From: a virus
Virus record (IMG/VR): IMGVR_UViG_3300029305_003918
Direction: 5' to 3' (one strand)
Length of the DNA stretch: 64,000 bases
The position numbers and the translations under genes are program-made. The notes under the pieces were generated by a model, which was given only the letters and a program-made list of their open reading frames with translations, had not been told where the DNA came from and made no database searches. This document shows, piece by piece, positions 1-25,305 of the stretch; position 1 is the stretch's first letter; each line of letters begins with the position of its first letter.

Positions 1-467
1 TCGCACCACTTGCGGTAAGTGGGCATCGGGGCGACCACATCACGAGCCATTGCCAGCGTGTCCCAAATTTCAACGCCCTTCGGGAAGAAGTAGCGATACT
101 TGGAGCAGGTTTCGTAACGCTGGGTCATCGTGCAGGAGCGATAGTCGAATCGGGCATTGTGGGCGATAACTGCCTTGATGTTGTACTTTTCGCAACAGTC
201 GCGGAACGCCTTGCGGATTTCGTACCACGTTGCAACCTTGATTTCGCCGCGTTCAATCTGTTCAAGATACTGCGGAATCTTGTGGGCGTAGTATGCGGAC
301 TGCATGAGTTCGGGACGGTCAAAGAAAATGTCGCGGTTGATGAAATTGAAGTTTTCGTAGGTGTTGCCGTGCTGGTCAATTACAGACCATGCGGTATTGT
401 AGTTGATGGGGCAATCCAGACCGTTGGCAGTTTCAGTATCCATCAGAATGTAGAAGTGGCGATTCAT
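1..467 (-). CDS. DnaQ-like DEDDh 3'-5' exonuclease, N-terminal part (the C-terminus runs off the left edge of the window)
   Basis: Minus-strand ATG at ~467, 9 nt after the conserved SD AAAGAGGTAA. The translation MNRHFYILMDTETANGLD... contains an Exo I motif (DTE) and an Exo II motif (AHNARFDY). The gene is not in the ORF track because it is truncated by the window edge. Confidence 0.65.
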   Translation of the reverse strand, partial: MNRHFYILMDTETANGLDCPINYNTAWSVIDQHGNTYENFNFINRDIFFDRPELMQSAYYAHKIPQYLEQIERGEIKVATWYEIRKAFRDCCEKYNIKAVIAHNARFDYRSCTMTQRYETCSKYRYFFPKGVEIWDTLAMARDVVAPMPTYRKWC

Positions 468-511
468 TTTGCATTACCTCTTTCTTGTTCTATTGCCTTT
501 CGACATTATCT

Positions 512-540
512 ATTATAGCAGATGTTGGGCTGTTTGTCAA
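512..540 (-). promoter_or_regulatory. Consensus sigma-70/sigma-A promoter for the exonuclease gene
   Basis: On the minus strand: TTGACA, then 17 bp, then TATAAT. An UP-like A-tract (AAAAAAAGTTTCAAAAAGG) lies upstream. Confidence 0.7.
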
Positions 541-570
541 TACCTTTTTGAAACTTTTTTTCGGGAAGAT

Positions 571-594
571 GGGGCAGGGTTTTACCCCTGCCCC
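571..594 (-). terminator. Intrinsic terminator hairpin after the 601-954 gene
   Basis: The palindrome GGGGCAGGG-TTTT-ACCCCTGCCCC lies directly 3' of the stop on the minus strand. Confidence 0.5.
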
Positions 595-600
595 GCAAGG

Positions 601-954
601 TCACTTCACCAGAGTGAAGTAAGCCTTGCGCTTCTCTTCCAGTCGCTGAACCTTGCCAGCTTCCACCAGCTGGCGAACCAGCGAAGCGACCTTCTGATTG
701 GAGAGCTGGGACAGCTCTTCATCAGCCTGCATCAGTTCAGACACAGTCACAGGCTGGGCGCAGGAAGCCAGCACTTCCAGCACATGGGACTTCACGCCCT
801 CATTCGCCTGCTGGGTCTTGGTGGGCTTCTTCTCCGCAGAGTTACGCTTGACCTGCTGGTCACGCAGAGCAGACAGCTTCTCACGCACTTCGGCAGACAG
901 AGCTTCGCAGTTCAGAGCAACTTCCAGAGCCTTCACATAAGTCATCTTTTCCAT
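601..954 (-). CDS. Hypothetical small protein (117 aa). It is a paralogue of the gene at 4142-4510 and has a possible winged-helix C-terminus.
   Basis: Track ORF with a consensus promoter plus SD upstream and a hairpin terminator downstream. Shares the motif SNQKVASLVRQLVE.GK..R.EEKRKAYF with the 4142-4510 product. Confidence 0.6.
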   Translation of the reverse strand: MEKMTYVKALEVALNCEALSAEVREKLSALRDQQVKRNSAEKKPTKTQQANEGVKSHVLEVLASCAQPVTVSELMQADEELSQLSNQKVASLVRQLVEAGKVQRLEEKRKAYFTLVK

Positions 955-1035
955 GATTCATTACCTCTTTCTTTCTTGTCGATTGGTGTTAGTGACTGTC
1001 GAGTGGGGCTGGCGCCTTGCCCTTTCGACATCCTT

Positions 1036-1064
1036 ATTGTACCACACCTTGCGGTGTTTGTCAA
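1036..1064 (-). promoter_or_regulatory. Promoter for the 601-954 gene
   Basis: TTGACA-N17-TACAAT with a TGG extended -10. The shared UP element and GTCGAAAGGG initial transcribed sequence are present. Confidence 0.65.
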
Positions 1065-1156
1065 GGGGTTTTTGAAACTTTTTTTTTGAGTTTTTATCCT
1101 GTGCGCTTCAGCGCCGAAGGGTTCCTCTTGCAGTTCCTTGCCCTCTTGACACTATC

Positions 1157-1185
1157 AGTATATCACATCTTGGCGGCTTTGTCAA
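1157..1185 (-). promoter_or_regulatory. Tandem promoter copy with no ORF of its own
   Basis: TTGACA-N17-TATACT with the UP element. Only ~60 nt separate it from the next promoter copy. Confidence 0.5.
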
Positions 1186-1266
1186 GGGTTTTTCAAAACT
1201 TTTTTTGAAGAAGTTTTGTCGACCAGCTTCACTCGGCATCACCTCAGTGCCCTCCTGACATTATCT

Positions 1267-1295
1267 ATTATACAGTATCAGACCCCAAATGTCTA
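1267..1295 (-). promoter_or_regulatory. Degenerate third tandem promoter copy
   Basis: TAGACA-N17-TATAAT. The same flanking CGACATTATCTATTATA context as the promoter at 512-540. Confidence 0.35.
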
Positions 1296-1344
1296 TTGAC
1301 AGATTGCACAAAGTTTCGGGAAAAAGTTTGTGCAGTTTGCCTAT

Positions 1345-1373
1345 TGACAAATTGCTCGAAAAATGGTATAATG
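1345..1373 (+). promoter_or_regulatory. Plus-strand consensus promoter convergent on (antisense to) the AbrB-like gene
   Basis: TTGACA-N17-TATAAT on the plus strand. It is preceded by a direct repeat of CTATTGACAnATTGC and an 8-bp inverted repeat TGCACAAA/TTTGTGCA. Confidence 0.55.
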
Positions 1374-1420
1374 GAAGGATACGCGGGAAAACCGGCGCCC
1401 ACGCTCGTGGGCGCGCGGGC

Positions 1421-1449
1421 GAAAAAAGAGTGACCTTGCGGTCACTCTT
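1421..1449 (-). terminator. Intrinsic terminator after the AbrB-like gene
   Basis: 9-bp stem AGAGTGACC/GGTCACTCT followed on the minus strand by TTTTTT. A second GC hairpin lies at 1394-1414. Confidence 0.6.
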
Positions 1450-1714
1450 CACAGCGGATGGGGTCATCGAGGTGGTTCACCATTTCGCAGATCAGTTCCT
1501 GCCGCTTTGCGGTGCTCAGGCTTTCCCACTCAGACTGCAGGCGGTCAAAGCTCAGATGCTCTTCATGGTAGGGCTTCATCACAAGCCCGTATTCCTTGTC
1601 CAGATACATCTCAAGGGGATCGCCCTCTTTGATGTTCAGGTTCCTGCGGATTTCCTTGGGGATAACAATGCGACCCAGTTCATCGACTCTTCTTACAATA
1701 CCAGTTGCTCTCAT
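1442..1714 (-). CDS. AbrB/SpoVT-family (swapped-hairpin) DNA-binding regulator, ~90 aa
   Basis: N-terminus MRATGIVRRVDELGRIVIPKEIRRNLNIKEGDPLEMY closely resembles AbrB/MazE N-domains. The start was chosen by SD spacing; the track's longer N-terminal extension overlaps the promoter. Confidence 0.65.
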   Translation of the reverse strand: MRATGIVRRVDELGRIVIPKEIRRNLNIKEGDPLEMYLDKEYGLVMKPYHEEHLSFDRLQSEWESLSTAKRQELICEMVNHLDDPIRCEE

Positions 1715-1744
1715 GTTCATTACCTCTTTCCTTTTGATGTACTT

Positions 1745-1773
1745 ATTATACCACATGTGAGAGGGGTTGTCAA
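1745..1773 (-). promoter_or_regulatory. Promoter for the AbrB-like gene
   Basis: TTGACA-N17(..TGG)-TATAAT. The -35 hexamer sits at the centre of the palindrome GGGGTTGTCAACCCC. Confidence 0.65.
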
Positions 1774-1781
1774 CCCCTTTC

Positions 1782-2255
1782 TCACAAATTTTTGCTTTCA
1801 GTCACAAAGTATTTTGCATCATAGCTCTGTAACAGTTTCTTAACATTCAGACTGTCCTGCTGAGTGGGACAATAGAAGTTAAACAAGAAATACTTTTCGA
1901 TGTTCACATAGTTGTAAGTGAATCCATAGTATTTGCAATCTTCAATCATCTGTTCTGCTTGTTCGGCAGGAATGGTGACTTCGACTTTCCAGAGTTTGTC
2001 TTTTCTTGCCTTTTCTTCAAAATACTTGACCACATACACACCCACAAGGTTACAGCCTGCGACAATCAGCGCCTTGGTGGCAAGAGGCAAATCGCACATC
2101 ATGTAGACAGTGACCACAGTGTAGAGTCCGAAGGCAACAGCGTTAACAATCGCGGCGACCCCTTTTCCGCATTTGATGGTTGCAATGCTCTTGACGGTCT
2201 GAATGATAACATTGGCGATGTTCAGCAGGATGAAGGTGAGAAGCAGAGTGTTCAT
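1782..2255 (-). CDS. Hypothetical membrane protein (157 aa; N-terminal transmembrane helices)
   Basis: Track ORF with hydrophobic N-terminal segments, an SD, and a consensus promoter at 2288-2316. Confidence 0.55.
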   Translation of the reverse strand: MNTLLLTFILLNIANVIIQTVKSIATIKCGKGVAAIVNAVAFGLYTVVTVYMMCDLPLATKALIVAGCNLVGVYVVKYFEEKARKDKLWKVEVTIPAEQAEQMIEDCKYYGFTYNYVNIEKYFLFNFYCPTQQDSLNVKKLLQSYDAKYFVTESKNL

Positions 2256-2287
2256 TGTGTTACTTCCTTTCGTCTTTCGTTGTACTT

Positions 2288-2316
2288 ATTATACCATAGG
2301 TTCGGCAGGTTGTCAA
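2288..2316 (-). promoter_or_regulatory. Promoter for the 1782-2255 gene
   Basis: TTGACA-N17(..TGG)-TATAAT plus the UP element. Confidence 0.65.
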
Positions 2317-2340
2317 TACCTTTTTGAAAATTTTTTTCTT

Positions 2341-2372
2341 GCAAAGGGCTGTCACACAGGACAGCCCTTTGC
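2341..2372 (-). terminator. Hairpin, possibly a terminator, after the 2352-2666 gene
   Basis: 12-bp stem GCAAAGGGCTGT/ACAGCCCTTTGC overlapping the stop codon. No clean U-tract follows; it abuts the next UP element. Confidence 0.35.
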
Positions 2373-2666
2373 ATACTTCTGATTCTTCTTGATTTTCTGT
2401 GCCATCCAGTTCGGCATGTGCAAGCCTGCGGACTTGTAAATCATGCCAGCCTGTTCAAGAGTGGGAATGTAAGCAGTCACCATGGTTTCGCTTTCCGGCA
2501 TCTTGACAATCAGCACACCAGTTTCGGACAGGCACTGCCGAGTGCCCTTGTCTCTGCGGAAACCTTCGCACACAATCTTGTCACCGAAGCCAATCTTCTG
2601 TGCAATGTACACACAGCGGTCAATGCGGTCTACCATAGCGTGTTTGGTCATTTCGATCTTCATCAT
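2352..2666 (-). CDS. Hypothetical protein (104 aa)
   Basis: Track ORF. Promoter at 2708-2736. A 12-bp-stem hairpin overlaps the stop codon. Confidence 0.55.
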   Translation of the reverse strand: MMKIEMTKHAMVDRIDRCVYIAQKIGFGDKIVCEGFRRDKGTRQCLSETGVLIVKMPESETMVTAYIPTLEQAGMIYKSAGLHMPNWMAQKIKKNQKYAKGCPV

Positions 2667-2836
2667 TTTTGTTTACCTTCCTTTCTGTTGTCCCTTTCGA
2701 CATTATTAGTATAGCACACTTTGGGCTGTTTGTCAACAGCTTTTTTCTGATTTTCCAGATTTTTTTTCATGGCATTCATTGCCGCCACTCTCATAGCGGT
2801 CTGACTTGCAACAATAGCACCGATCATGATACCCAT
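2663..2836 (-). CDS. Small hydrophobic protein (57 aa), uncertain
   Basis: SD AAGGAGTGA then ATG at ~2836. Its TGA stop overlaps the downstream gene's ATG (ATGA overlap). Its coding sequence runs across the promoter of the next gene. Confidence 0.35.
   Translation of the reverse strand: MGIMIGAIVASQTAMRVAAMNAMKKNLENQKKAVDKQPKVCYTNNVERDNRKEGKQK
2708..2736 (-). promoter_or_regulatory. Promoter for the 2352-2666 gene
   Basis: TTGACA-N17-TATACT. The spacer shares AACAGCCCAA with the promoters at 512 and 5092. Confidence 0.6.
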
Positions 2837-2865
2837 GTTTATCACTCCTTCATTTGATACATTTA

Positions 2866-2894
2866 TTATACCACAGGGGAAAGGCTTTGTCAAG
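2866..2894 (-). promoter_or_regulatory. Promoter for the 2663-2836 and 2352-2666 genes
   Basis: TTGACA-N17(..TGG)-TATAAT. The -35 is flanked by the inverted repeat GGGAAAGGC/GCCTTTTCCC. Confidence 0.6.
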
Positions 2895-3228
2895 CCTTTT
2901 CCCAAATTTCTTTTGCCATCTGATAGCGTCCGCTGTTGTCGCCATGTGCAGTGATGTAATCATGCCCAATGTGGCGACTTGCAATTTCAAATTCTTTCAA
3001 GCCGCCATCCCACAGGCACACCAGCAACTGAAGTAGATGCACAGGCAGGAACAGGAGCAGATACACAGGCCAGCTAATCTTGCAATCGCGGCGATAGTCG
3101 GGGTTGCCATCTGCAGAATAGGCACCAGCTTCGGTCAGAGAGTAGGAGCAGAGGGGACGAAGCCACTTGGCCGCAGGATTGTACTTGCCGATGTAGGTCC
3201 AGTCATTCAGAGAAATCTTCTTAGTCAT
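2890..3228 (-). CDS. Hypothetical protein (112 aa) with a hydrophobic central segment
   Basis: In-frame ATG at 3228 after an SD. The track's 199-aa version extends across the promoter and is rejected. The TGA stop is embedded in the -35 TTGACA of the next promoter. Confidence 0.55.
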   Translation of the reverse strand: MTKKISLNDWTYIGKYNPAAKWLRPLCSYSLTEAGAYSADGNPDYRRDCKISWPVYLLLFLPVHLLQLLVCLWDGGLKEFEIASRHIGHDYITAHGDNSGRYQMAKEIWEKA

Positions 3229-3265
3229 TGTAGTTACTTCCTTTCTTGTTCCTTTTGATGTACTT

Positions 3266-3294
3266 ATTATACCATGCTCAGAGGGATTTGTCAA
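3266..3294 (-). promoter_or_regulatory. Promoter for the 2890-3228 gene
   Basis: TTGACA-N17(..TGG)-TATAAT. A perfect 10-bp inverted repeat GCTCAGAGGG/CCCTCTGAGC brackets the -35. Confidence 0.65.
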
Positions 3295-3313
3295 CCCCTC
3301 TGAGCAACTTTTT

Positions 3314-3565
3314 TTAGGCATCTGCCCAGCTGATGTGCAGGCTGGATTCACACCAACGAACCTTGTAACCTGCTTCAACCATAGTGTTGTATACCTTGGA
3401 CTGGATGCGAGGGTCGGCACCGCTGAGACCATTGCTGTAATACATGGAGGTGTTGCCCTTGCTGGCATAGATCTGAATGGTGTCTTCAATCTTCTGCAGG
3501 TGCTTGTCAGCTTCGGCGGTCAGGTAGTTGGTGGTCATGGTCTTAGCTTCTTTGGCAGTCATCAT
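3314..3565 (-). CDS. Hypothetical protein (83 aa)
   Basis: Track ORF with promoter at 3616-3644 and an SD. Confidence 0.5.
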   Translation of the reverse strand: MMTAKEAKTMTTNYLTAEADKHLQKIEDTIQIYASKGNTSMYYSNGLSGADPRIQSKVYNTMVEAGYKVRWCESSLHISWADA

Positions 3566-3615
3566 AGTAGTAACTTCCTTTCTGTTGGGACTCTGTGTTC
3601 CCTTTCGATGGTTTA

Positions 3616-3644
3616 ATTATAGCAGATTCGGGATGATTTGTCAA
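3616..3644 (-). promoter_or_regulatory. Promoter for the 3314-3565 gene
   Basis: TTGACA-N17-TATAAT plus the UP element. Confidence 0.65.
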
Positions 3645-3743
3645 TACCTTTTTTGCAAGTTTTTCAAATTATTTTTTGCTGGCTGGTGCTCCTCGCGGAA
3701 ATTCGGCGAGTGGGCAAGCGCAGCGCCCGCCCACGCGCCGGCG

Positions 3744-3783
3744 AATAAAAAAAGAGTGGGGCTCAGGCTCTGAGCACCCACTC
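3744..3783 (-). terminator. Intrinsic terminator after the 3763-4020 gene
   Basis: Stem GAGTGGGGCTCAG/CTGAGCACCCACTC followed on the minus strand by TTTTTTTATT. Confidence 0.6.
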
Positions 3784-4020
3784 GGGGAGGTTCTCCCACA
3801 GTCGGGAGAGGTGGCAGGTGACCACCGTGGAGCGTTCCCACTCCACATCACCGCCATCCCAGAAGAAGCGGTAGTGGTCGATGGTGACCATGTCACCGTG
3901 GAAGGTGACCTTGACGGTCTCGTGAGAGGCCAGCCAAGAGCCCTTGCCAGTGAACAGGCAGTTGGACTGGGCTTCGAAACCGTAGTTGGCGATCAGGGTG
4001 GCAGCGATGGTGTTCTTCAT
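3763..4020 (-). CDS. Hypothetical protein (85 aa)
   Basis: ATG at 4020 after SD GAGGAGG. The start is trimmed from the track ORF, whose N-terminus overlaps the promoter. A terminator hairpin overlaps the stop. Confidence 0.5.
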   Translation of the reverse strand: MKNTIAATLIANYGFEAQSNCLFTGKGSWLASHETVKVTFHGDMVTIDHYRFFWDGGDVEWERSTVVTCHLSRLWENLPEWVLRA

Positions 4021-4065
4021 GGGGATCCTCCTCGTTGTTCGGGCTCTTGCCCTTTCGTTGATACT

Positions 4066-4094
4066 ATTATAGCACAGGATAGGCAGGTTGTCAA
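4066..4094 (-). promoter_or_regulatory. Promoter for the 3763-4020 gene
   Basis: TTGACA-N17-TATAAT. Directly abutted upstream by a 13-bp-stem hairpin. Confidence 0.65.
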
Positions 4095-4104
4095 GGGGTT
4101 TTTT

Positions 4105-4137
4105 CGGGGTGGTGAAAGTTTTTTTCACCACCCCGCG
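4105..4137 (-). terminator. Hairpin, possibly a terminator, after the 4142-4510 gene
   Basis: 13-bp stem CGGGGTGGTGAAA/TTTCACCACCCCG. The A-tract that follows doubles as the next UP element. Confidence 0.35.
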
Positions 4138-4141
4138 AGGG

Positions 4142-4510
4142 TCAGGCAAGGCGGAAATACGCCTTGCGCTTCTCCTCGATTCGGGTCAGCTTGCCCTCTT
4201 CCACAAGCTGACGGACAAGGCTTGCAACCTTCTGATTGCTCAGCTCGCCCAGCTCGGGAGCAAGGGTCTGAATCTCGCTTACGGTCTTGGCTTCCTGACC
4301 CTCAAGGGCAGTCAGGATAACCTGCTTGATGCCAACGTTGGCTTCCTGAACCTTGGTCGGCTTCTTCTCACCGCTGTTACGCTTCTCCTGCTGAGTACGC
4401 AGGGCAATCAGCTTTTCCGCGATCTCGGTGGGCAGGTTGCCGTTCTCAATGGCGTAGGTCAGGGCGGTCACGTAGGTCAGCTTCTCATTCTTCACATTGA
4501 TAGTAGTCAT
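4142..4510 (-). CDS. Hypothetical protein (122 aa), paralogue of the 601-954 product
   Basis: ATG at 4510 after AAAGAGGTAA. The C-terminal 60 aa are nearly identical in pattern to the 601-954 product. Confidence 0.6.
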   Translation of the reverse strand: MTTINVKNEKLTYVTALTYAIENGNLPTEIAEKLIALRTQQEKRNSGEKKPTKVQEANVGIKQVILTALEGQEAKTVSEIQTLAPELGELSNQKVASLVRQLVEEGKLTRIEEKRKAYFRLA

Positions 4511-4581
4511 AGCGATTACCTCTTTCTTTCCGCGCTCTTGGCGCTGTCGTTTTGTTTTGTTCCTTCCCTTGGAACATCTTA

Positions 4582-4610
4582 AGTATACCACAGGTCGGTC
4601 GGTTTGTCAA
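4582..4610 (-). promoter_or_regulatory. Promoter for the 4142-4510 gene
   Basis: TTGACA-N17(..TGG)-TATACT plus the UP element. Confidence 0.6.
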
Positions 4611-4661
4611 GCCCTTTTTGAAACTTTTTTCAAGTTTTTTTTCGGGGCTTGGGGAAGGGTA

Positions 4662-5066
4662 TCAGCCCTTCCCCTTGTCCTTGGGGGGTCGGTGGGCGGT
4701 CAGCGTAACCGAATAGGAAACGCCGTTCAGCACAAAGTCCACTTGACGCTCGGGGTTGACAACCTCGCAGTTGTCAAAGTCCTTCAATGCGTCGTGCAGG
4801 CAGTCCACCAATAGTCGCTTGTCCTCGTTGGGCTTGCGTTCTCGGGTTCGGGTCTTGCCTGCAGGGTCAACCACCTTGTGAGCCTTGGGTCGGTTCGCCT
4901 TGCGTGCTTCCTTCTCTTGCTCGGGTGGCAAGTCCCATGGGGTAGGGTTGCCCTTGTCGATCTGCTTGTCCCACCATGCCATTTCGGCTTCTTCCAGTGA
5001 GCAACCAGTCTTATCGACCATGGCGTCCAACCACTCAGGGGTAGGATACTGAAGTTCCTTAGCCAT
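4662..5066 (-). CDS. Hypothetical protein (134 aa)
   Basis: ATG at 5066 after SD AAAGGAGG. Promoter at 5092-5120. Confidence 0.5.
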   Translation of the reverse strand: MAKELQYPTPEWLDAMVDKTGCSLEEAEMAWWDKQIDKGNPTPWDLPPEQEKEARKANRPKAHKVVDPAGKTRTRERKPNEDKRLLVDCLHDALKDFDNCEVVNPERQVDFVLNGVSYSVTLTAHRPPKDKGKG

Positions 5067-5091
5067 GTTCTTGACCTCCTTTACATTAACT

Positions 5092-5120
5092 ATTATACAG
5101 CATCTTGGGCTGTTTGTCAA
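5092..5120 (-). promoter_or_regulatory. Promoter for the 4662-5066 gene
   Basis: TTGACA-N17-TATAAT. The -35 lies inside the 10-bp inverted repeat TTGTCAAGGG...CCCTTGACAA. Confidence 0.65.
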
Positions 5121-5151
5121 GGGGTTTTTACGCCCTTGACAAACTTTTTTT

Positions 5152-5721
5152 TCAATCGTTCAGATAGAAGTCAACCCACTTTTCAGCCTGTTCCAGATCA
5201 AACTCAACTTGATAGAAACGATCATTTTTCTGGAAAGTGTTCGGATGCTTGCGGATGTACTTGGAACGCAGGAAACTTTCCAAACCTTCTGCGTCAACTT
5301 CTCCGCAATCCCAAACTTTAGTAACTTCGATCGTTTTGATACCATACTTGCGATAGTAGCGCAGGTGTTCGCTCATGCGTTCTTCAATGGTTCGGGTGGT
5401 CGTGCCGACCTTTGACCAAACCAGATTGCCCTCTTCATTAAGCAGCCGCAGGAGATACACAAGCTGATTGCCCTCTACCTTGTCGCAGGAGTAAACCACG
5501 TTTGCGGTCGGCTTAAAGAAAGACTTTACCTTGTCAACAACGCCCTTGACAAACCGATCAACGATGAAATAGGCATCCTTGACAAAAGTCCAAACCGCAC
5601 GAACAACTTCATTTTCTTCCCACAGAGCAAGCATCTTTTTGAAGTTGTTGTTGCGTCCAGAAGTGGAAGTGCAAGCGCACATGCGGTCGTAGTAGAGATC
5701 CATCAGTTCCAGTGCATTCAT
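5152..5721 (-). CDS. Hypothetical protein (189 aa)
   Basis: ATG at 5721 after SD AAGGTGG. Promoter at 5779-5807. A faint GIY-YIG-like pattern is present but not claimed. Confidence 0.5.
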   Translation of the reverse strand: MNALELMDLYYDRMCACTSTSGRNNNFKKMLALWEENEVVRAVWTFVKDAYFIVDRFVKGVVDKVKSFFKPTANVVYSCDKVEGNQLVYLLRLLNEEGNLVWSKVGTTTRTIEERMSEHLRYYRKYGIKTIEVTKVWDCGEVDAEGLESFLRSKYIRKHPNTFQKNDRFYQVEFDLEQAEKWVDFYLND

Positions 5722-5778
5722 TGTGATTACCACCTTTGTCATTTTGTCTTGTCGGTGTTTCCCTCACCAACTGAGACT

Positions 5779-5807
5779 ATTATAGCATAGGTGGGCAGGA
5801 ATGTCAA
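5779..5807 (-). promoter_or_regulatory. Promoter for the 5152-5721 gene
   Basis: TTGACA-N17-TATAAT. Confidence 0.6.
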
Positions 5808-5842
5808 TAGGTTTTTGAAAAAAACTTTTTTTTCTTTTTCTG

Positions 5843-5871
5843 CAAAAAGGTATTGACATTTGATCCCTCTT
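5843..5871 (+). promoter_or_regulatory. Plus-strand consensus promoter that drives no identifiable ORF
   Basis: TTGACA-N17-TATAAT on the plus strand. It is back-to-back with the promoter at 5779-5807 and is transcribed into the 5878-6290 non-coding region. Confidence 0.6.
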
Positions 5872-5877
5872 GTAGTA

Positions 5878-6290
5878 TAATACTATCAGAGGTTGAGGGA
5901 AGCACAACCACTACGGGCACTGAGGATTCGCGATTACTCGGTGGCAAAACTCTCGCAGGTATCAAGAGCTTCCAGATCGCGGCGAACGGGTAGTGTCAGC
6001 TCGGTTAGCACGCTACGCAAGTAGAAGAGACGTTCAAATCGTCCCCCTAGCCTACGCGATCACTCCACCCCATACATCCACGGCGGTGAAATTCCGCCCG
6101 CGCAAGCGAAGACGAGAGTGGCTCTGTTTTGGGATGGGGCTTGTTTTTGTATGTTTATGCATTGTCGATGAATAATTATGCATGGCCTATGCGTGCGGGA
6201 ATACGGCTGGTGCACAGACTTGGCGCCCGTGCACCAGCCGGCCAGAGGGAAAAGAAATGCAGGATGTGTGGAGTCATCCTGCATTTCATT
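5878..6290 (+). ncRNA. Candidate structured non-coding RNA (~400 nt) driven by the plus-strand promoter at 5843-5871
   Basis: No ORF with an SD is present. Two GNRA-type tetraloop hairpins occur (CTAC-GCAA-GTAG near 6003-6014 and CGC-GCAA-GCG near 6089-6098). A T-loop-like GACG-TTCAAAT-CGTC lies at 6019-6033. Further stems are at 6072-6088 and 6197-6228. The region ends at the bidirectional hairpin at 6255-6286. Confidence 0.3.
6255..6286 (-). terminator. Intrinsic terminator after the nucleotidase and membrane-protein operon
   Basis: 12-bp stem AAATGCAGGATG/CATCCTGCATTT followed on the minus strand by CTTTTCCCTCT. Confidence 0.55.
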
Positions 6291-6292
6291 TA

Positions 6293-6532
6293 TCACTTGC
6301 TCTTACTGGAAACATTGGTCTTGAAGATAACCTGCAATGCATTGGTAGCCCAGAAGAACTGCCAGTAGTTCAGGTCAGGCAGGTTGAAGTCCAGCTTTAC
6401 TGCATTGTATCCCATCTGCACAACCCATGGCCCAGCGAAGATGACCAGCGCCAGCACAATCAGCGCCGCAATCACAGTCGCGCATCCAGAGTTATCACTA
6501 TTATAACTATTATAACTGAATCCCATAGTCAT
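6293..6532 (-). CDS. Small membrane protein (79 aa)
   Basis: Track ORF with a hydrophobic core and SD AAGAAAGAGAGG. Likely co-transcribed with the 6562-6999 gene. A strong terminator follows it. Confidence 0.5.
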   Translation of the reverse strand: MTMGFSYNSYNSDNSGCATVIAALIVLALVIFAGPWVVQMGYNAVKLDFNLPDLNYWQFFWATNALQVIFKTNVSSKSK

Positions 6533-6561
6533 TTACCTCTCTTTCTTGTTGCTCTCTGCAC

Positions 6562-6999
6562 TCAGCGAGTGAGTGCAGAGAGAGTGGCGAAGATAGTTTC
6601 GGGAGTGAACGCCTTGCCCTGTTCCCATGCGTTGCGGTTGCGCTCTTCATCATCGAAGAGAATGCCGCTCTTGCAGGTGTCCCACTTGTTCTGCCCATAG
6701 GGAACGATCTCCACCACATCCCAATGAACAGAAGGCAGATGCTTGGCGAGCCATGCGAGCTTGGCGGCTCGGACTGCTTCATCATAGGCAAGAGTGCTTT
6801 CCTTGCTACACCAGCTGATGATGCAGAGTTCGTGTCCCTGTGCCTGTGCCCTGTTGAGCATCCTTGCCAGCGTTGCCATGTGGTGCATGGGCTTTGCCAT
6901 TGCGTAGGGTGCAGGGTCGTAAGCTCGGAGCATCTGAAGCCATCCATCAACCGCATACAGGTCAGCAATCGTACCATCCATATCGAACCAGATCTTCAT
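6562..6999 (-). CDS. HAD-superfamily 5'(3')-deoxyribonucleotidase-like protein (NT5C family)
   Basis: N-terminus MKIWFDMDGTIADLY matches HAD motif I (DxDGT). A downstream DD motif is present. Size is ~145 aa. Confidence 0.6.
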   Translation of the reverse strand: MKIWFDMDGTIADLYAVDGWLQMLRAYDPAPYAMAKPMHHMATLARMLNRAQAQGHELCIISWCSKESTLAYDEAVRAAKLAWLAKHLPSVHWDVVEIVPYGQNKWDTCKSGILFDDEERNRNAWEQGKAFTPETIFATLSALTR

Positions 7000-7046
7000 T
7001 CTCATTACCTCTTTCTGTGTTTTGTCTTGTCCCTTTCGACACTATT

Positions 7047-7075
7047 AGTATAGCACGTCTTAGGGTATTTGTCAA
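7047..7075 (-). promoter_or_regulatory. Promoter for the nucleotidase and small membrane protein operon
   Basis: TTGACA-N17-TATACT plus the UP element and the GTCGAAAGGG initial transcribed sequence. Confidence 0.6.
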
Positions 7076-7190
7076 GCCTTTTCCGCAAACTTTTTTATCT
7101 TTTTTTTCGAGGGGGAAGATCGCTCTTCCCTCCTCTGTGCATAGACTTGCTTTTCTTTCCTCTTGACGAGCTTCTTAAACCTTGCGCTGT

Positions 7191-7499
7191 TCATCCTCTT
7201 GCCCTCCTCATGGCTTCGAGCTTCTGCTGGATGCGGTCGAACTTCGCCAACAGTTTGGCATAGCGGCGATCCTGCCAACCCCAGTACATCTGTGCAACAG
7301 CATCCCAGAATGCGCGGGTACTGTAATAGCACTCATGTTCCACCTTGAAAGTGGCAGGTACAGGCTTCTTTTTTTCTGCTTCCAGAAGCCTTGCCATCAC
7401 TCTGTTTGCACCTTTGCGAGTGCGGAACAGACCTACTCTGTGTGCGGCGGTGCGAGTGCGAGTACTTTCTACCTTCGAATACTTCATGAGGATAAACAT
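7191..7499 (-). CDS. Hypothetical basic protein (102 aa)
   Basis: ATG at 7499 after SD GAAAGGAG. Promoter at 7538-7566. Confidence 0.5.
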   Translation of the reverse strand: MFILMKYSKVESTRTRTAAHRVGLFRTRKGANRVMARLLEAEKKKPVPATFKVEHECYYSTRAFWDAVAQMYWGWQDRRYAKLLAKFDRIQQKLEAMRRARG

Positions 7500-7537
7500 T
7501 GCTTTGATCTCCTTTCGTTGTTCCCTTGACACTACCT

Positions 7538-7566
7538 ATTATAGCAGGTTTCAGGATGTTTGTCAA
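7538..7566 (-). promoter_or_regulatory. Promoter for the 7191-7499 gene
   Basis: TTGACA-N17-TATAAT. Confidence 0.6.
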
Positions 7567-7647
7567 TAGGTTTATACAGATTATTTTTGTTAATTATTTG
7601 TTGTGTCTCTTGTTTGTTGGCTAGCTAGGCCCGTGCTCGGTGACCTC

Positions 7648-7926
7648 TTAGATGTCGTAAGAGGTACAACCGAACATGAAGCCCACACCATCAAGCACCA
7701 CTTCATGGTAGAAGTCACCAGTGCCCAGCTCGTCGATGATGTCCTGCACCTGCTCAACCAGCTCAGGCATGGTATAGTCACGGAACTGCTCACACCAGTC
7801 ATCATCGAAGCCGATGAAGTCGATGAAATCCACACAGATTTCAGTGTCGGATTCGCGACGGATTTCAACATCGCCAGCCTGTTCGAGGGTTTCCAGCATG
7901 GTCATCAGCATTTCAGCAGTCATCAT
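7648..7926 (-). CDS. Hypothetical acidic protein (92 aa)
   Basis: Track ORF. Promoter at 7978-8006. SD GAAAGGAAG. Confidence 0.5.
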   Translation of the reverse strand: MMTAEMLMTMLETLEQAGDVEIRRESDTEICVDFIDFIGFDDDWCEQFRDYTMPELVEQVQDIIDELGTGDFYHEVVLDGVGFMFGCTSYDI

Positions 7927-7977
7927 TGTAGTTACTTCCTTTCTTTCAGCTGGGCTCTTGTCCCTTGCTGTGATTAT

Positions 7978-8006
7978 AGTATACTACAACTGACCGCGTT
8001 TGTCAA
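7978..8006 (-). promoter_or_regulatory. Promoter for the 7648-7926 gene (the right-most unit of the array)
   Basis: TTGACA-N17-TATACT plus the UP element. Confidence 0.6.
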
Positions 8007-8282
8007 TAGGTTTTTACAATTTTTTTTATTAAGTTTTAGGATAACACTTAACATGATGCATTCAATGCATTCGCGACGCTTTTGTTGCATGACAGGTTTA
8101 TTGCGCAAACTCGGGGCGTGCCGACCATGCACGCCCCGACGAGCGTTCCAGATGCTGGCAGTACTCTTGTATTTTTTTCTGGTATGTAAATCCATTCAAC
8201 ATTCACCCTCCGGGCACCCTTTCGGGAAAAAAATTATTTTGAAAGAGAAAAGGGGTTATACCTGGTCACAATTCCCACTAAA

Positions 8283-9059
8283 TCAAATTTGAAATCTGGA
8301 AGACGGAGATATATCATCAAAAGTGAGATTGGAAAGTTTAACGGTATAGGGAATTCTAATTAAAGGGATCCCTTGCTCTTTACAGTATACGTTCTTGCGC
8401 TCATCCCGCTCTTTTTGAATTTGTAATTTTTCTTCTCCGCCCCATGCTTCAACAGCCTTAAAATGCTGCTCTCCATCATATTCAATTAAATAAGATAACT
8501 GTCTATTTGAATCAAAAACCGCAAAATCAAACTTTAAACCTGTAGACAGCTCTTCAATGGAATATTGCTCTTCAAATATTACATCAAGATCTTGCAGCAT
8601 TGTCCGCACGTATAGTTCACCAGCAGATACTTGAGAACAGCCACACGATACAGTATATTTATATCCATCTCTATCGCTACCGCGCTTATATCCAGTTAAA
8701 TGGTCTTTTCGCACTGAAACCACATTGCCGCAATCACATTGACATTTAACATAAGAAGTATATCTTCCACCCGCGGTTTTATAAGGTAAATCATATTCAA
8801 TCACTGTTAATTTACCAAACCTATCTCCCATTTTTAAGGCTTGATGACCTCTACCACCTGAAATTTCTCCTGCGGCGATTCTGCAATCAACACAACCCTT
8901 TTCAACATCTTCTTTCCGCAAAATAGCTTCCTTGCCGCATTGATTGCATTTACATAGCAGTGGTGTCGAATGACTCTTCCAAGGTGTCTCTTCTTTAGAA
9001 GGACGCCGAATAACAGTTAATGTCTTAAAAGTTTGACCAATCATTTCTTGCCATTTCAT
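8283..9059 (-). CDS. Zinc-ribbon-rich protein with a C-terminal Vsr/DUF559-like (PD-(D/E)xK) endonuclease domain; possible homing endonuclease
   Basis: Several CxxC pairs. The C-terminal segment LKFDFAVFD...LIEYDGEQH...IPLIRIPY is paralogous to the 13919-14275 product. The start was chosen at a TAATG overlap with the upstream gene. Confidence 0.45.
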   Translation of the reverse strand: MKWQEMIGQTFKTLTVIRRPSKEETPWKSHSTPLLCKCNQCGKEAILRKEDVEKGCVDCRIAAGEISGGRGHQALKMGDRFGKLTVIEYDLPYKTAGGRYTSYVKCQCDCGNVVSVRKDHLTGYKRGSDRDGYKYTVSCGCSQVSAGELYVRTMLQDLDVIFEEQYSIEELSTGLKFDFAVFDSNRQLSYLIEYDGEQHFKAVEAWGGEEKLQIQKERDERKNVYCKEQGIPLIRIPYTVKLSNLTFDDISPSSRFQI

Positions 9060-9457
9060 TATAGATGACATTCTCCTCTCATATAACAATCCATGTGACA
9101 TTGACCACTCTCTGCTTCACAGGGCAGTAAACTTTTCAACACTTCTTCCACATGTCGGCTTTCCGCAAATTTCTGTAGTTCCACCCATCCATGGCGAAGC
9201 AATACTTGCTTCGCCACATAGTGGTTTTTTTCTCTTTCCCAATGCGCGCACTCTTCTTCTGTAGGATAGTCGCTCCAATCTAATTTTTCATCTGGGACTC
9301 TTTTGTACTGGCCAGTATTTACCTCTTTAAACATACTCGCTAGTACTTTATGTTTACGCTTAAAGGGATTTTCTAGTCCCATCGTCGGTGCAACCTCTCG
9401 CATAAATTTTTCTTCTGCGCGCAGAATCGTGCTACCGACGGAGTTAAGGATGAACAT
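9059..9457 (-). CDS. Hypothetical Cys/His-containing protein (132 aa)
   Basis: Track ORF in the leftward operon driven by the promoter at 9821-9849. Confidence 0.4.
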   Translation of the reverse strand: MFILNSVGSTILRAEEKFMREVAPTMGLENPFKRKHKVLASMFKEVNTGQYKRVPDEKLDWSDYPTEEECAHWEREKNHYVAKQVLLRHGWVELQKFAESRHVEEVLKSLLPCEAESGQCHMDCYMRGECHL

Positions 9458-9798
9458 CAGTGTACCCCATCCAAGTGACGAGCAATGCTGTCATCACCTT
9501 CATAAGTAATAAAATTCTCAATTGGTCCGCCGTATCGCTCACCTACAGAATAGCGGTACCAAGAATTTGGACTCACAAATACAGTAATGCTCTCCATCTT
9601 GCCACTCTGGTCACCCAACACAAACCAGAATACATCATCGTGTACAAATGCATATTCATCGATATAGCTCAATGCGTACCCCTTATCCACGATGTAATAA
9701 CTTGTGCCTTTGGTTGCTCCAATTGCAACAAACAATAGACCGACCGCAATTGCCACAATTAAAATCAGACTAATGATCTTCTGTACCATTGAAGTCAT
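9457..9798 (-). CDS. Membrane-anchored hypothetical protein (~113 aa)
   Basis: SD AAAGGAG then ATG at ~9798. The track's longer start falls inside the -10 element. A transmembrane helix is present near the N-terminus. Confidence 0.45.
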   Translation of the reverse strand: MTSMVQKIISLILIVAIAVGLLFVAIGATKGTSYYIVDKGYALSYIDEYAFVHDDVFWFVLGDQSGKMESITVFVSPNSWYRYSVGERYGGPIENFITYEGDDSIARHLDGVH

Positions 9799-9820
9799 CT
9801 CCTTTATCATTTCTATATAC

Positions 9821-9849
9821 ATTATATCAAATTTTTTTTAAATTTTCAA
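9821..9849 (-). promoter_or_regulatory. Leftward promoter for the 9798-8283 operon
   Basis: On the minus strand: TTGAAA-N17-TATAAT. It is divergent from the rightward promoter ~20 bp away. Confidence 0.5.
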
Positions 9850-9867
9850 ATGGGCGATCTTTTTTAC

Positions 9868-9896
9868 TTGACTCATGAAAATTTTTGTGGTATAAT
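9868..9896 (+). promoter_or_regulatory. Rightward promoter at the start of the late or structural module
   Basis: TTGACT-N17-TATAAT, followed by SD GAAGGAGG. Confidence 0.55.
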
Positions 9897-9913
9897 AGAG
9901 GCATAGAAGGAGG

Positions 9914-10984
9914 TTGATTATTATAATCAAGCTAGATTATACGATTGAATCTCCTCAAGAGCGAAATGAATTGGTGAAATAGATTTTAACAGAGACTCCC
10001 GACCCAAGCGAGCAATATCTGGAAATCCTTGCTGATTATTTGGTTCTTTGTATGGAGAAACAAGAGAAGAAGGAGCGAAAGATTCTCACCGACAACCGTA
10101 TGGCGACTGTCAATAAACGAGAAACATCTTTCGAGGGTCTTGTTGGCCAGTTGGAGAATGGCGAAGATGGTATATATAATTTAGTAACGAACGATAAGAA
10201 TGTAATATTTTAGCCGAAAGTAACAATTACGAAAAAAGATTTAGAAGAAATTGAGCCATTACGTCAGTTGCGCGACAGCATAGCATATTGGGAAAAGCTG
10301 TCTAAAACTGCGACTGGGCGAGCAGCCTATATTATCAAATCAACTATTATCGAATTGCGGAAGGATCAATATCTTATTAAAAACGCCTACCGCCAACCAA
10401 TTGTTGCGCGAAATATTACAAGAAATATCGGACACTATATTAAACTCCCATGGGATGAATGGGTAGATGAAAATGGAGAAATCCAGTATGAAGGTGTGTC
10501 CTTTATCAATCCCGTTGTTATTAGCACTATTTTATGCAATTATTCTAAACTAAAAGAAGGATGCTATGGCAGGTTCGAGGGTGATACCTGGTATATGATG
10601 GAAGACTTTGATAGATTAGTAGATAATTCACTTGCCGGCTATCCTTTATACCGTCGTATTGTAGAATATAAAATTGACGGGCAATCTAATGTTGATATCA
10701 AGGAAATGATTGAAAAGGAATTCGGCTTCACTCATTCGCTCGAATATATTTCTTCGTTATGGCGTAATAAAATTCCAAAGCTCATTGCCTCTTATTATAC
10801 AGATGAATGGCTGACCTGGTATTATACTGAAAAAGAATATGGGAAGTGGAAGAAATGTACTAGGTGTGGGCAAATTAAGTTAGCCCATTCAAGATTTTTT
10901 TCCATAAACAAAGGTTCAAGAGATGGATGGTATTCTTTGTGTAAGTGTTGCCGGAATGCCAAGAACAAGAAGGCAAAGGAGTAA
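9914..10984 (+). CDS. Hypothetical protein (~355 aa) with a C-terminal zinc ribbon; contains 2 in-frame TAG codons; the start codon is uncertain
   Basis: The frame of track ORF 10268-10984 continues upstream through TAGs at ~9980 and ~10211 with no TAA or TGA. It begins right after the SD GAAGGAGG with a TTG/ATT/ATA candidate start. The first in-frame ATG is at 10052. The protein ends in CTRCGQ...CKCCRN. Confidence 0.4.
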
Positions 10985-10989
10985 TGTGA

Positions 10990-12162
10990 ATGGCAGACTT
11001 AAATAAAACTTATTATTGTAAGGTCTGCGGTCGAACGATGGATACTGATCAATTTTACACATCTAATCGGTTGGATAGATACCCCGACGATGGTAAATTA
11101 CCTGAATGTAAGAAATGCATCACTCGACATGTAGACAATTGGAATCCGAAAACTTATTTATGGATTTTGGAAGAGATCAATGTTCCTTATATTGAAGAGG
11201 AATGGAATACTCTACTTGAACGTTATGGCAAGGACCGCACCAAGGTTACTGGTATGACCATCTTGGGTCGTTACCTTTCCAAAATGAAATTGAATCAATA
11301 CAAAAATTATTCATGGGAAGATACTGAAAAGATTAAGGCTGAAATGGATGCGCGGAAGCGAGACGTTATGGCTCGACAAGGCTATACTGGAGAAGAGATT
11401 GAGGAAGCTCTCGCCGCAAACAGGACACCTGAAAGACCCGCTGAACTAGAAGCAACACGAGAGGAGCCTGCTCCGATTGATGCCTTTGAGCCAGTGGGAT
11501 TCGAAGATGATCTAACTGAAGAAGATAAAACTTACTTGGCGATTAAGTGGGGCAAGACCTACAAACCGTATGAATGGGTTCAGTTAGAGAAGTATTATCA
11601 AGAGATGATGCAATCGTTCGATATTCAGACTCCATCTCATGAAGACTATTTAAAGCTTATTTGTAAAACTTCAATCAAGGCTCATCAACTGATTGACTTG
11701 GGCGACATCGAAGGTTTCCAAAAGATGTCTAAGGTTTATGACGCTTTGATGAAATCCGCTAAATTTACTGCGGTTCAGAATAAGGCTGAGGCTGGCGAGT
11801 TTGTTAACTCAATTTCTGAACTGGTTTTATTATGTGAAAAAGAAGAGGGATTTATTCCTCGTTTCTATACCGACAAGCCGAAGGATAGAGTTGATGAAAC
11901 TCTTGCGGACTTGCGTGGCTACACTAACACTCTTGTTACTGAAGAGATGAATCTTGGTAATCTTATCGAATCTGCGGTTAAGGCATTGCAGCGCGAAGCC
12001 GAACGCGAAGAAGATGAAGATATTGATGATGAAGATGAAATTATGGATATGGATTCTCTTGATGAATTGAAAGATGATGACTTTGCCGAACACTATGAAT
12101 TCTTAGAACAAGAGGCTGAAGATGATGCCTTAACGATGATGGAAATGTTAAAGGAGGAATAA
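10990..12162 (+). CDS. Hypothetical protein (390 aa) with an N-terminal zinc ribbon and an acidic C-terminus; possibly the terminase small subunit by position
   Basis: Intact track ORF with SD AAGGAG. Immediately upstream of the large terminase gene. Has a CxxC...CxxC motif and a D/E-rich tail. Confidence 0.3.
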   Translation: MADLNKTYYCKVCGRTMDTDQFYTSNRLDRYPDDGKLPECKKCITRHVDNWNPKTYLWILEEINVPYIEEEWNTLLERYGKDRTKVTGMTILGRYLSKMKLNQYKNYSWEDTEKIKAEMDARKRDVMARQGYTGEEIEEALAANRTPERPAELEATREEPAPIDAFEPVGFEDDLTEEDKTYLAIKWGKTYKPYEWVQLEKYYQEMMQSFDIQTPSHEDYLKLICKTSIKAHQLIDLGDIEGFQKMSKVYDALMKSAKFTAVQNKAEAGEFVNSISELVLLCEKEEGFIPRFYTDKPKDRVDETLADLRGYTNTLVTEEMNLGNLIESAVKALQREAEREEDEDIDDEDEIMDMDSLDELKDDDFAEHYEFLEQEAEDDALTMMEMLKEE

Positions 12163-12163
12163 T

Positions 12164-13918: not shown

Positions 13919-14275
13919 ATGAGAGCGTCTCGTGGAGAAATCAAGATTCAAGAGATTCTGGAAGAGGCGGGATTGCGGTTCACAATGGAACAATCATTTG
14001 AGGGTTTAAATAGCCCGAATGGTCGTCCTTTGCGGTTTGACTTTTGTGTATTTGACGATGATGGAAATATTGATTTCCTTATTGAATATCAAGGTAAACA
14101 ACATTATGAACCATCAAGTAAATTTGGTGGAACAAAAGGTTTTTATCAACAGTAGTTCAATGATAACAAGAAACGTCGTTTTTGTGCATTAAAGGAAATC
14201 CCATTAGTTGAAATTCCGTATACAGAAGAGAATCTTATTACTTATGATTATATTATGACAAAGGCTGGCTATTAA
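13919..14275 (+). CDS. Free-standing Vsr/DUF559-like (PD-(D/E)xK) endonuclease, a likely homing endonuclease (118 aa; 1 TAG)
   Basis: The segment RFDFCVFDDDGNIDFLIEYQGKQHY...IPLVEIPY continues through the TAG at ~14153 to a TAA at 14273. Inserted between the terminase and portal genes. Paralogous to the C-terminal domain of the 8283-9059 product. Confidence 0.5.
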
Positions 14276-17321: not shown

Positions 17322-17347
17322 TTAGATATCAAAGGAGGAGCTAAAAA

Positions 17348-18052: not shown

Positions 18053-18075
18053 TTCGGAAAGGAGAGAAACTAGCT

Positions 18076-19122: not shown

Positions 19123-19137
19123 TTAAATAAATATATC

Positions 19138-19166
19138 GGGGAGGGATCACTCCCTCCCCATTTTTG
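19138..19166 (+). terminator. Intrinsic terminator after the putative major capsid gene
   Basis: GGGGAGGGA-TCAC-TCCCTCCCC followed by ATTTTT. Confidence 0.6.
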
Positions 19167-19186
19167 AGTAAAAGGAGTTTTAAAAT

Positions 19187-25276: not shown

Positions 25277-25305
25277 TTGACAAACAAAAAATTTTCTGGT
25301 ATAAT
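25277..25305 (+). promoter_or_regulatory. Internal consensus promoter upstream of the chaperone-like and tape-measure genes
   Basis: TTGACA-N17(..TGG)-TATAAT on the plus strand, immediately after the TGA stop of the preceding gene. Confidence 0.5.

Follow-up and report, generated by a model that had tools for sequence, protein, structure and literature searches.

A bounded GC-rich island of sigma-A-type promoters and small TAG-free genes lies upstream of the TAG-recoded late module of an uncultivated phage

The window analyzed in this work, i.e., the whole 64,000-nt stretch of the viral record IMGVR_UViG_3300029305_003918 (IMG/VR), carries two oppositely oriented sets of genes: small leftward genes reaching from its left edge to position 9789, and a rightward strand from position 9914, which turns into one unbroken module of packaging, head and tail genes if TAG counts as a sense codon. 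Within the leftward set lies a GC-rich island crowded with near-consensus promoters of the sigma-A type, and it is the extent, composition and possible role of this island that are considered here. The analysis was extended with a public contig of the same phage (ENA ERZ27248457, designated L113), which shows 17 mismatches to the window over 10,954 nt and reaches 9.4 kb past its left edge.

The GC content of positions 1-8030 is 48.9% (about 51% in the coding parts), compared with 39.2% for 8281-9913 and 36.0% for 9914-64000. In a 200-nt profile the drop, from about 47-53% to about 39%, is sharp and located between about 8000 and 8400, which places the right boundary of the island at 8030-8282. 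A preliminary description of this DNA had proposed such a step and had set it at about 8030-8280, and both proposals agree with the quantitative windowed profile. Its estimate of a GC content in the mid-50s for 1-8030 was about six points too high, and of the early module that it regarded as GC-rich throughout (1-9913) only 1-8030 deserves the name, because 8281-9913 already has the low value given above (GC content at third codon positions, GC3, of its three genes is 33%). The in-window part of the island (1-8030, minus strand), with a gene GC3 of about 62-63%, runs ~3.8 kb past the left edge; there, L113 contains nine more promoters and genes with GC3 of 52-76%. Beyond the left end of the island, GC falls to 35-43%, and a FolD-like gene and other genes (GC3 20-45%) are all TAG-free. 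On L113 the promoters span 2949-13727 (L113 positions), with GC of 45-55% in this region and 35-43% on both of its flanks. Since low-GC DNA lies on both sides of the promoter array, the GC-rich stretch is a bounded island of about 11.8 kb, matching an array of 26 promoters, and not a genome-wide split.

The promoters came to light in a repeat search, which revealed a 45-80-nt element present in at least 14 copies and reading, on the minus strand, as a sigma-A promoter. Within 1-8030, 17 leftward sites deviate from TTGACA-17-TATAAT at no more than one position (ten of these are perfect), and almost all carry a TG-extended -10 element; the remaining 54 kb of the window hold about five such sites on both strands together. 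Positions 1-10000 contain 21 sites with at least 11 of the 12 promoter matches and 40 sites with at least nine, vs 11.9 +/- 3.4 of the latter in shuffled sequences. For the whole island (11.8 kb, followed through L113) the number of near-consensus sigma-A promoters rises to 26, of which 17 are in the window. The perfect leftward sites (12/12) are located at 512-540 (TTGACA-17-TGcTATAAT), 1745-1773, 2288-2316, 2865-2893, 3266-3294, 3616-3644, 4066-4094, 5092-5120, 5779-5807, and 7538-7566, and those with 11/12 matches at 1036-1064, 1157-1185, 1267-1295 (TAGACA), 2708-2736 (inside the 3' part of a 57-aa gene), 4582-4610, 7047-7075, and 7978-8006, the last being the rightmost promoter of the island. 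The aligned promoter regions share an A-tract UP-like element AAAAAAAGTTTCAAAAA and the motif TGTGnTATAAT, followed by a conserved leader GTCGAAAGGG and then a AAAGAGGTAAT-type ribosome-binding site; the strong Shine-Dalgarno sites of the array are of the AAAGAGGT type. There are one or two small genes per promoter, often with a GC-rich hairpin after them.

Two further features of these promoters are worth mentioning. In most of them (512-8006, minus strand) the transcribed leader GTCGAAAGGG is found about 5-15 nt past the -10 element, and the promoters at 1745-1773, 2865-2893, and 3266-3294 form palindromes centred on the -35 hexamer. Both could be candidate operators, or processing or shut-off sites. 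On the opposite (plus) strand, a perfect consensus promoter at 1344-1372 faces the 3' end of the 1442-1720 gene in antisense orientation, and another perfect one (5853-5881) is followed by about 400 nt without a convincing open reading frame (ORF). The latter region (5853-6290, plus strand) is a candidate small non-coding RNA, as it contains a tRNA-like T-arm (GACGTTCAAATCGTC) and a strong hairpin at its end; conservation is 81% over 160 nt in the related locus L001 and 92% over a 38-nt core in two others (L003 and L004). This region matched no Rfam family and nothing in ARAGORN, and the Rfam scan of 1-10500 returned no credible family either.

Independent gene calls on L113 yielded 18 complete leftward genes and one cut at the window edge. 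The complete genes end in TGA (15 genes) or TAA (3 genes) and never in TAG, and the cut gene has a TGA stop in L113. No in-frame TAG was found in these 19 genes, and reading TAG as sense neither lengthens nor joins their ORFs; the earlier count of 19 intact leftward genes with TGA or TAA stops is therefore upheld. The early genes are small (57-218 aa, including the cut one). The leftmost is exonuclease-like (5' part at 3-467; 218 aa in L113, GC3 69%, TGA), a candidate label that comes from motifs read by eye only, with no match in Pfam; its homologue in the array of Enterococcus phage VRE9_4 has a GC3 of 25% vs 69% here. It is followed, in the rightward direction but always on the minus strand, by a 117-aa gene (601-954, TGA), whose product occurs in identical form on 22 public contigs and is paralogous to that of the 122-aa gene at 4142-4510 (TGA); a 92-aa gene (1442-1720, TGA) with a predicted AbrB/MazE-type DNA-binding domain (Pfam PF04014, E 1.5e-12); and a 157-aa gene with a membrane-like N-terminal half (1782-2255, TGA), the homologues of which have GC3 from 36% to 59%. 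Genes of 104 aa (2352-2666, TGA), 57 aa (2663-2836, TGA), 112 aa (2890-3228, TGA), 83 aa (3314-3565, TAA), 85 aa (3763-4020, TGA, GC3 85%), and 134 aa (4662-5066, TGA) come next. The right part of the island encodes a 189-aa protein with a T5orf172 domain (5152-5721, TGA; Pfam PF10544, E 8.4e-6), a membrane-like protein of 77 aa (6293-6526, TGA), a 145-aa HAD/NT5C-like putative nucleotidase (6562-6999, TGA; Pfam NT5C, E 3.5e-5, just below the curated cut-off), and proteins of 102 aa (7191-7499, TGA) and 92 aa (7648-7926, TAA).

To the right of the island, a low-GC leftward operon of three genes (8283-9789, minus strand; 258, 132, and 110 aa; GC3 33%, no TAG) is preceded by the promoter TTGAAA-17-TGaTATAAT with an AT-rich spacer (9821-9849, minus strand). 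Its 258-aa gene (8283-9059) is of the PD-(D/E)XK/DUF2726 type and resembles homing endonucleases, as does a paralogue located directly after the gene of the large terminase subunit (TerL) at 13919-14275 (plus strand); the C-terminal domain of this type of gene was found after TerL in 80 of 80 related loci.

The GC step is almost wholly synonymous, as GC1 and GC2 scarcely shift (GC1/GC2/GC3: early 53.8/36.5/63.3, late 47.4/36.3/24.2). A comparison of codon usage in both modules had been proposed in the preliminary description, and the two GC3 values differ widely. CTG makes up 57% of leucine codons in early genes vs 1-2% in late genes, and altogether three codon classes can be distinguished in the window. 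The early genes favour CTG, CGC, ATC, ACC, CCC, GGC, AAG, and CAG, avoid NCG, and keep GAA (third position A/C/G/T 13/34/29/23%); the head genes (15912-19777 and 22431-23363) prefer T-ending codons together with AAG and CAG and have almost no CTG (14/18/22/45%); and the remaining late genes favour TTA, AAA, CAA, and TAG (31/10/12/47%). The pattern in the early genes is codon-specific, with GAA exceeding GAG, yet AAG exceeding AAA and CAG exceeding CAA (GAA 70%, GCA 35%, ACA 0%). Stop usage parallels the split: TGA prevails in the early and TAA in the late genes. The head genes (plus strand) stand out by a GC3 of 37-43%, T-ending four-fold codons, and CAG far more frequent than CAA.

The late module (10990-64000, plus strand, GC3 24%) includes the genes of TerL (12164-13906) and the portal protein (14289-15896) as well as the giant ORFs 25953-37328 and 37449-43442. 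With TAG read as sense, ORFs cover 61.0 kb instead of 49.1 kb and the longest one grows from 7.3 to 11.4 kb, and 105 in-frame TAGs are present among 17,152 late codons, so the description of the downstream module as TAG-rich was correct. The 3791-aa ORF at 25953-37328 accounts for 42 of them, and TerL, portal, and giant ORFs carry 2-42 each. The 704 glutamine-type codons of the late module comprise 105 TAG, 157 CAG, and 442 CAA; its stops in the window are 26 TAA and 2 TGA, and no window gene ends in TAG. The density of TAG is very uneven, with none in the head genes and none in the block 50056-61704.

That block (plus strand, 3840 codons) consists of four genes (405, 451, 548, and 2437 aa) with about 123 CAG/CAA codons vs 0 TAG, and the adjoining giant ORFs have 42 and 18 TAGs. 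It may stem from tail-fibre genes recently exchanged with a non-recoded relative, or belong to another expression class.

The first rightward gene (9914-10984, plus strand; 356 aa if 9914 is the start) is headed by a sigma-A-type promoter TTGACT-17-TGgTATAAT at 9868-9896 (plus strand), which is kept in nearly all relatives. Its product matches PHROG 5767 'sigma factor' (E 1.7e-50 over 316 residues), a label also borne by the homologues in VRE9_1-4, Sundance, and E3; it had no Pfam match at E <= 1 and no PDB sequence match, and its AF2 model has a pLDDT of 71.9. In the window this gene has TAGs at 9980-9982 and 10211-10213. Within its family, TAG aligns with glutamines conserved in non-recoded relatives: the window's TAG at codon 100 takes a consensus Q position, and relatives have TAG at the invariant Q152. 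Among about 63 distinct homologues, 45 carry 1-11 TAGs, often at conserved glutamines, and the non-recoded relatives carry none. In recoded relatives, the first late gene has a host-type promoter yet needs TAG suppression. A perfect sigma-A promoter (TTGACA-17-TGgTATAAT, 25277-25305, plus strand) is also present inside the late module, just upstream of 25339-25863 and the 3791-aa ORF with its 42 TAGs, and therefore the host polymerase could transcribe suppression-dependent genes. The late intergenic regions were inspected by eye for a shared late-promoter motif, and nothing obvious was seen.

The early genes contain 70 CAG/CAA codons and no TAG, an outcome with a chance of ~1e-5 at the late-module rate of 105/704. 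The limitation of recoding to late genes, with early genes left in the standard code, is the published model for such phages (bioRxiv 10.1101/2021.08.26.457843); the temporal partition of the code is established knowledge, to which a TAG-free early module alone adds nothing. The preliminary description had suggested the same temporal programme, and the sequence lends it good support, since the TAG-free region is that with 17 host-type promoters in 8 kb. It might also be argued that the absence of TAG has no regulatory meaning and follows from short genes, high GC3 with its preference for CAG, and the general rarity of TAG. The head genes, which are highly expressed, and the 3840-codon block likewise lack TAG, as do the 'middle' genes left of the island (TAG-free alone therefore does not mean early), and TAG stops in crude early ORFs are depleted weakly in recoded relatives (16/357 vs 16/182 in non-recoded ones, p = 0.054). 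We nevertheless find such an origin very improbable, given the low chance value above, the lack of TAG as a stop in any window gene, and the coincidence of the TAG-free block with the array of host-type promoters.

The affiliation of the phage was assessed with TerL (two TAGs), which is 62% identical to the protein of an unannotated human faecal contig, 47-48% identical to TerLs of Enterococcus phages VRE9_4, H1, and EF1 and Geobacillus virus E3, and 43.5% identical to that of phAss-1. A crAss-like identity, suggested by the GC content and TAG recoding, was rejected on the basis of these matches to Enterococcus/Geobacillus siphophages and phAss-1. The latter is a human-gut phage of 136 kb with TAG = Gln and three suppressor tRNAs among its 36 tRNA genes (PMC10607447). 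In its genome the tRNA genes, three of them with the CUA anticodon, include a full U34 set and are embedded in the promoter-rich strand; the set is near-complete and without bias towards A/T-ending codons. ARAGORN found no tRNA genes in the window or in L113, and no suppressor tRNA (CUA anticodon) is encoded within the 64 kb, which are a part of the genome, or the 9.4 kb to their left. IMG/VR contains 233 TerL relatives, of which the top 80 show identities of 71-93% and come from contigs as long as 200 kb, and a protein search with a neighbouring gene gave >6,700 homologues. As judged from these similarities, the phage can be placed in a very large family of gut and rumen phages, most of them uncultivated. 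A megablast search of both modules against 50,697 phage records and an exact 47-mer search of IMG/VR gave no match.

The architecture is conserved throughout the relatives surveyed, i.e., 47 distinct loci with enough flanking sequence. Every one of the 47 has the promoter array upstream of its late module and a higher GC3 in early than in late genes, whether recoded or not (mean difference 19.2 points, range 5.9-43.1). The mean excess reaches 21.8 points in recoded vs 13.2 points in non-recoded relatives (p = 0.003, phylogeny uncorrected), so the step, which is smaller in the latter, is tied only loosely to recoding. Early and late GC3 correlate across lineages (rho 0.65). In addition, recoded relatives are GC-richer than non-recoded ones in both modules (phylogeny uncorrected; early GC3 51.6% vs 37.0%, late GC3 29.8% vs 23.8%), which within this family argues against a simple order in which lower GC precedes recoding. 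In phAss-1 the GC content is 31-41% in late genes, 42-49% in replication and nucleotide-metabolism genes, and 49-56% in the tRNA block and promoter-dense region; only this broad gradient is used here, because ORF calls with TAG as sense produced spurious antisense ORFs in the GC-rich half.

Gene content of the arrays is mosaic. L113 and another ENA contig encoding the identical 117-aa protein of 601-954 (L114) represent near-identical phages, yet their shared blocks of 90-95% identity are broken by unrelated cassettes and end no more than about 50 nt from promoter repeats; the cassettes thus appear, from these alignments, to be shuffled between related phages by recombination at promoters. L001, with a TerL 93% identical to that of the window, has few island genes in common with it. 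Orthologous early genes follow the composition of their own array, ranging from 23% to 80% GC3 overall: the NT5C-like gene, present in 28 loci, varies from 26% to 80%, and two further array families span 32-63% and 36-59%.

From the observed anatomy of the array, its absence of TAG, its codon statistics, conservation, and mosaicism we infer the timing of its expression, the polymerase used, the composition of the host, and the maintenance of the island by selection and not by recombination-linked bias. The promoters and gene organization indicate that the GC-rich stretch is very probably an immediate-early host-takeover array, and the AbrB/MazE-type, T5orf172, and NT5C-like domains are the only hints of an action on host processes. 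Our overall explanation, to which we assign a probability of roughly 55%, is that of an array of immediate-early host-takeover cassettes whose composition is kept for expression in a GC-richer Bacillota host. Following infection, transcription by the host sigma-A RNA polymerase would start at some 26 near-consensus promoters, including the 17 in the window. As they contain no TAG, the early genes would be readable by the unmodified host translation machinery under the standard code, while the rightward TAG = Gln module would be completed only once a phage suppressor tRNA, of the kind encoded by relatives, was present. The composition of the island would be held since its genes need immediate expression in a naive cell of the GC-richer host; the rest of the genome would remain AT-rich, served, as in relatives, by a near-complete phage tRNA set; and recombination at the promoter repeats would swap cassettes among related phages.

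That the composition stems mainly from host tuning is a narrower claim, which we consider possible, at somewhat under even odds. Several arguments make it plausible: the codon-specific pattern of the early genes; the necessity of translating them before any phage tRNA exists; the near-complete tRNA set of phAss-1; and, by analogy, a modest shift in the same direction in SPO1 (GC3 42.4% vs 34.6%). Early phage genes have been described as resembling the codon usage of the host, as early but not late genes of lambda do (cited in PMC5683454). Several observations weigh against it and against the overall explanation. The strongly expressed head genes favour T-ending codons and scarcely use CTG, so 'optimal' codons differ between the head and early gene classes, and the three genes at 8283-9789 have a sigma-A-type promoter yet a GC3 of 33%. 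Promoter-spacer GC tracks early GC3 in 44 arrays (Spearman 0.68, slope 0.54), and unconstrained spacer positions have 57% GC in the island, compared with 6-29% in three window promoters outside it (whole 17-nt spacers, hand count); as these sites are non-coding, codon selection alone cannot explain this. Enterococcus phage VRE9_4, which has the same architecture, shows GC3 values of 22% vs 20%, and Geobacillus virus E3 25-26% vs 20%, and neither approaches the composition of its own host. TAG avoidance in the early arrays is a tendency of the family and not a rule, because about 4.5% of early ORFs in recoded relatives (the 16/357 mentioned above) end in TAG. Moreover, an inference of the host from bins of metagenome-assembled genomes containing relatives had to be abandoned, as these bins were scattered over Bacteroidales, Treponema, Mollicutes, and many Bacillota and proved unusable.

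The same spacer data would be expected if the island were a by-product of recombination, with the promoter repeats acting as an exchange hot spot between co-infecting relatives and no selection on translation; the GC would then stem from GC-biased gene conversion or from a steady influx of cassettes from a GC-richer pool of phages and hosts. Both the broken blocks of L113/L114 near promoter repeats and the fast turnover of gene content seen in L001 agree with it, as do the decreases of third-position A (from 31 to 13%) and T (from 47 to 23%), which a symmetric weak-to-strong bias would give. We regard this origin as a serious alternative but as rather unlikely, since the array of VRE9_4, with the same repeat architecture and presumably recombination of the same kind, shows no GC excess, and since the shift is not uniformly weak-to-strong, given the avoidance of NCG and the values for GAA, GCA, and ACA. 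We know of no demonstration of biased gene conversion in phages. Selection at the level of DNA is also conceivable: the DNA expressed first, and perhaps injected first, may mimic the host composition and so escape xenogeneic silencers or nucleases that sense AT-rich DNA until phage countermeasures are made. It would account for the shift at both coding and non-coding positions and for sharp bounds coinciding with the region that the host RNA polymerase must use, and the promoter-dense region of phAss-1 adjoins a terminus set by PhageTerm (PMC10607447). We judge it improbable, however, because GC1 and GC2 scarcely move and the shift is concentrated at synonymous sites, the promoters and their upstream elements are still AT-rich, and cultured relatives lack the island. 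Finally, the GC-rich block could be foreign, i.e., a single recent horizontal acquisition (the preliminary description had spoken of an array acquired separately), host DNA, or an assembly chimera. The sharp boundary at about 8030-8280 and the TGA vs TAA stop usage would suit such an event, but it is hardly credible: the same junction recurs in L113, L114, L001, and dozens of further independent assemblies, all 47 distinct relatives as well as phAss-1 have the array and GC3 excess, neither an integrase nor flanking repeats were found, and the recurrence of array-resident families at GC3 of 23% to 80% excludes a one-off foreign acquisition.

A bolder form of the host-takeover explanation, which we put forward only tentatively, treats the island as a selected, host-mimicking 'landing pad', the sole part of the genome bound to the tRNA pool and DNA composition of the host, because the phage would bring its own tRNAs, including the TAG suppressor, for later genes. 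The higher mean early GC3 of the recoded members (51.6% vs 37.0%) fits this idea. If it were true, the host composition could be read from the GC3 and codon profile of the early island, which could serve as a host predictor for uncultivated phages, and the reassignment of TAG would have been made possible by the release of late genes from the codon constraints of the host. What seems to us of most weight is the sequence-level picture of a standard-code-early, recoded-late programme in a very abundant uncultivated family. Next in importance, if host tuning is confirmed, the codon profile of the island could be used to infer host composition for thousands of metagenomic phages, and, thirdly, the island offers a natural opportunity to learn what sets the base composition inside a single replicon, be it selection on translation, recombination-linked bias, or evasion of defences.

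Among known systems, the island may be compared with the host-takeover module of SPO1, i.e., genes 37-60 in a 12.4-kb terminal region (Stewart et al. 1998, as summarised in PMC6873191). Both are roughly 12 kb long and made up mostly of small early genes whose ribosome-binding sites and promoters, the latter directed at the host sigma-A polymerase, are typical of high expression, and both have a GC3 above that of the late genes. The SPO1 excess is, however, 8 points (42.4% vs 34.6%) compared with about 38 here, and about 5 sites with at most one mismatch are found there vs 26 here. Moreover, the SPO1 module, which sits in the terminal redundancy, is bidirectional and belongs to a phage with the standard code throughout, whereas the island, known from metagenomic contigs, is unidirectional. 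In a tblastn search, 20 leftward proteins had no match at E <= 1e-3 in SPO1 1-50 kb, and the island is thus best described as analogous, not homologous, to that module.

The code-15 gut phages, and phAss-1 in particular, resemble the window phage in having TAG = Gln in structural genes, no TAG stops, and early or regulatory genes readable with the standard code, and phAss-1 has the same overall layout. In these phages, only late structural and lysis genes are recoded (bioRxiv 10.1101/2021.08.26.457843). The papers on them treat the low GC of whole genomes, in contrast to the internal GC-rich island or promoter array considered here, and the phAss-1 paper (PMC10607447) mentions neither early genes, promoters, nor internal GC structure. 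Differences in synonymous codon usage and GC between early and late genes were reported in a comparison of 14 phages (PMC5683454); the present case is extreme (GC3 about 62% vs 24%), involves three codon classes, is bounded, and reaches the promoter spacers. What is new in our analysis is how large the difference is, that it is confined to a bounded island, that this island matches the promoter array and extends into non-coding sites, and that it is kept throughout a large family.

A close cultured counterpart is Enterococcus phage VRE9_4, in which 17 consensus promoters are packed into about 7 kb, just upstream of the late module and on the opposite strand, and which shares the PHROG 5767 gene with its own sigma-A-type promoter as well as the homologue of the exonuclease-like early gene. 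Unlike the window phage, VRE9_4 and Geobacillus virus E3 show almost no GC step and no TAG recoding. The array of VRE9_4 (record 119-127 kb) is undescribed in the deposited annotation, and since this phage is cultured and its host is known, it would be a tractable experimental model for the array architecture.

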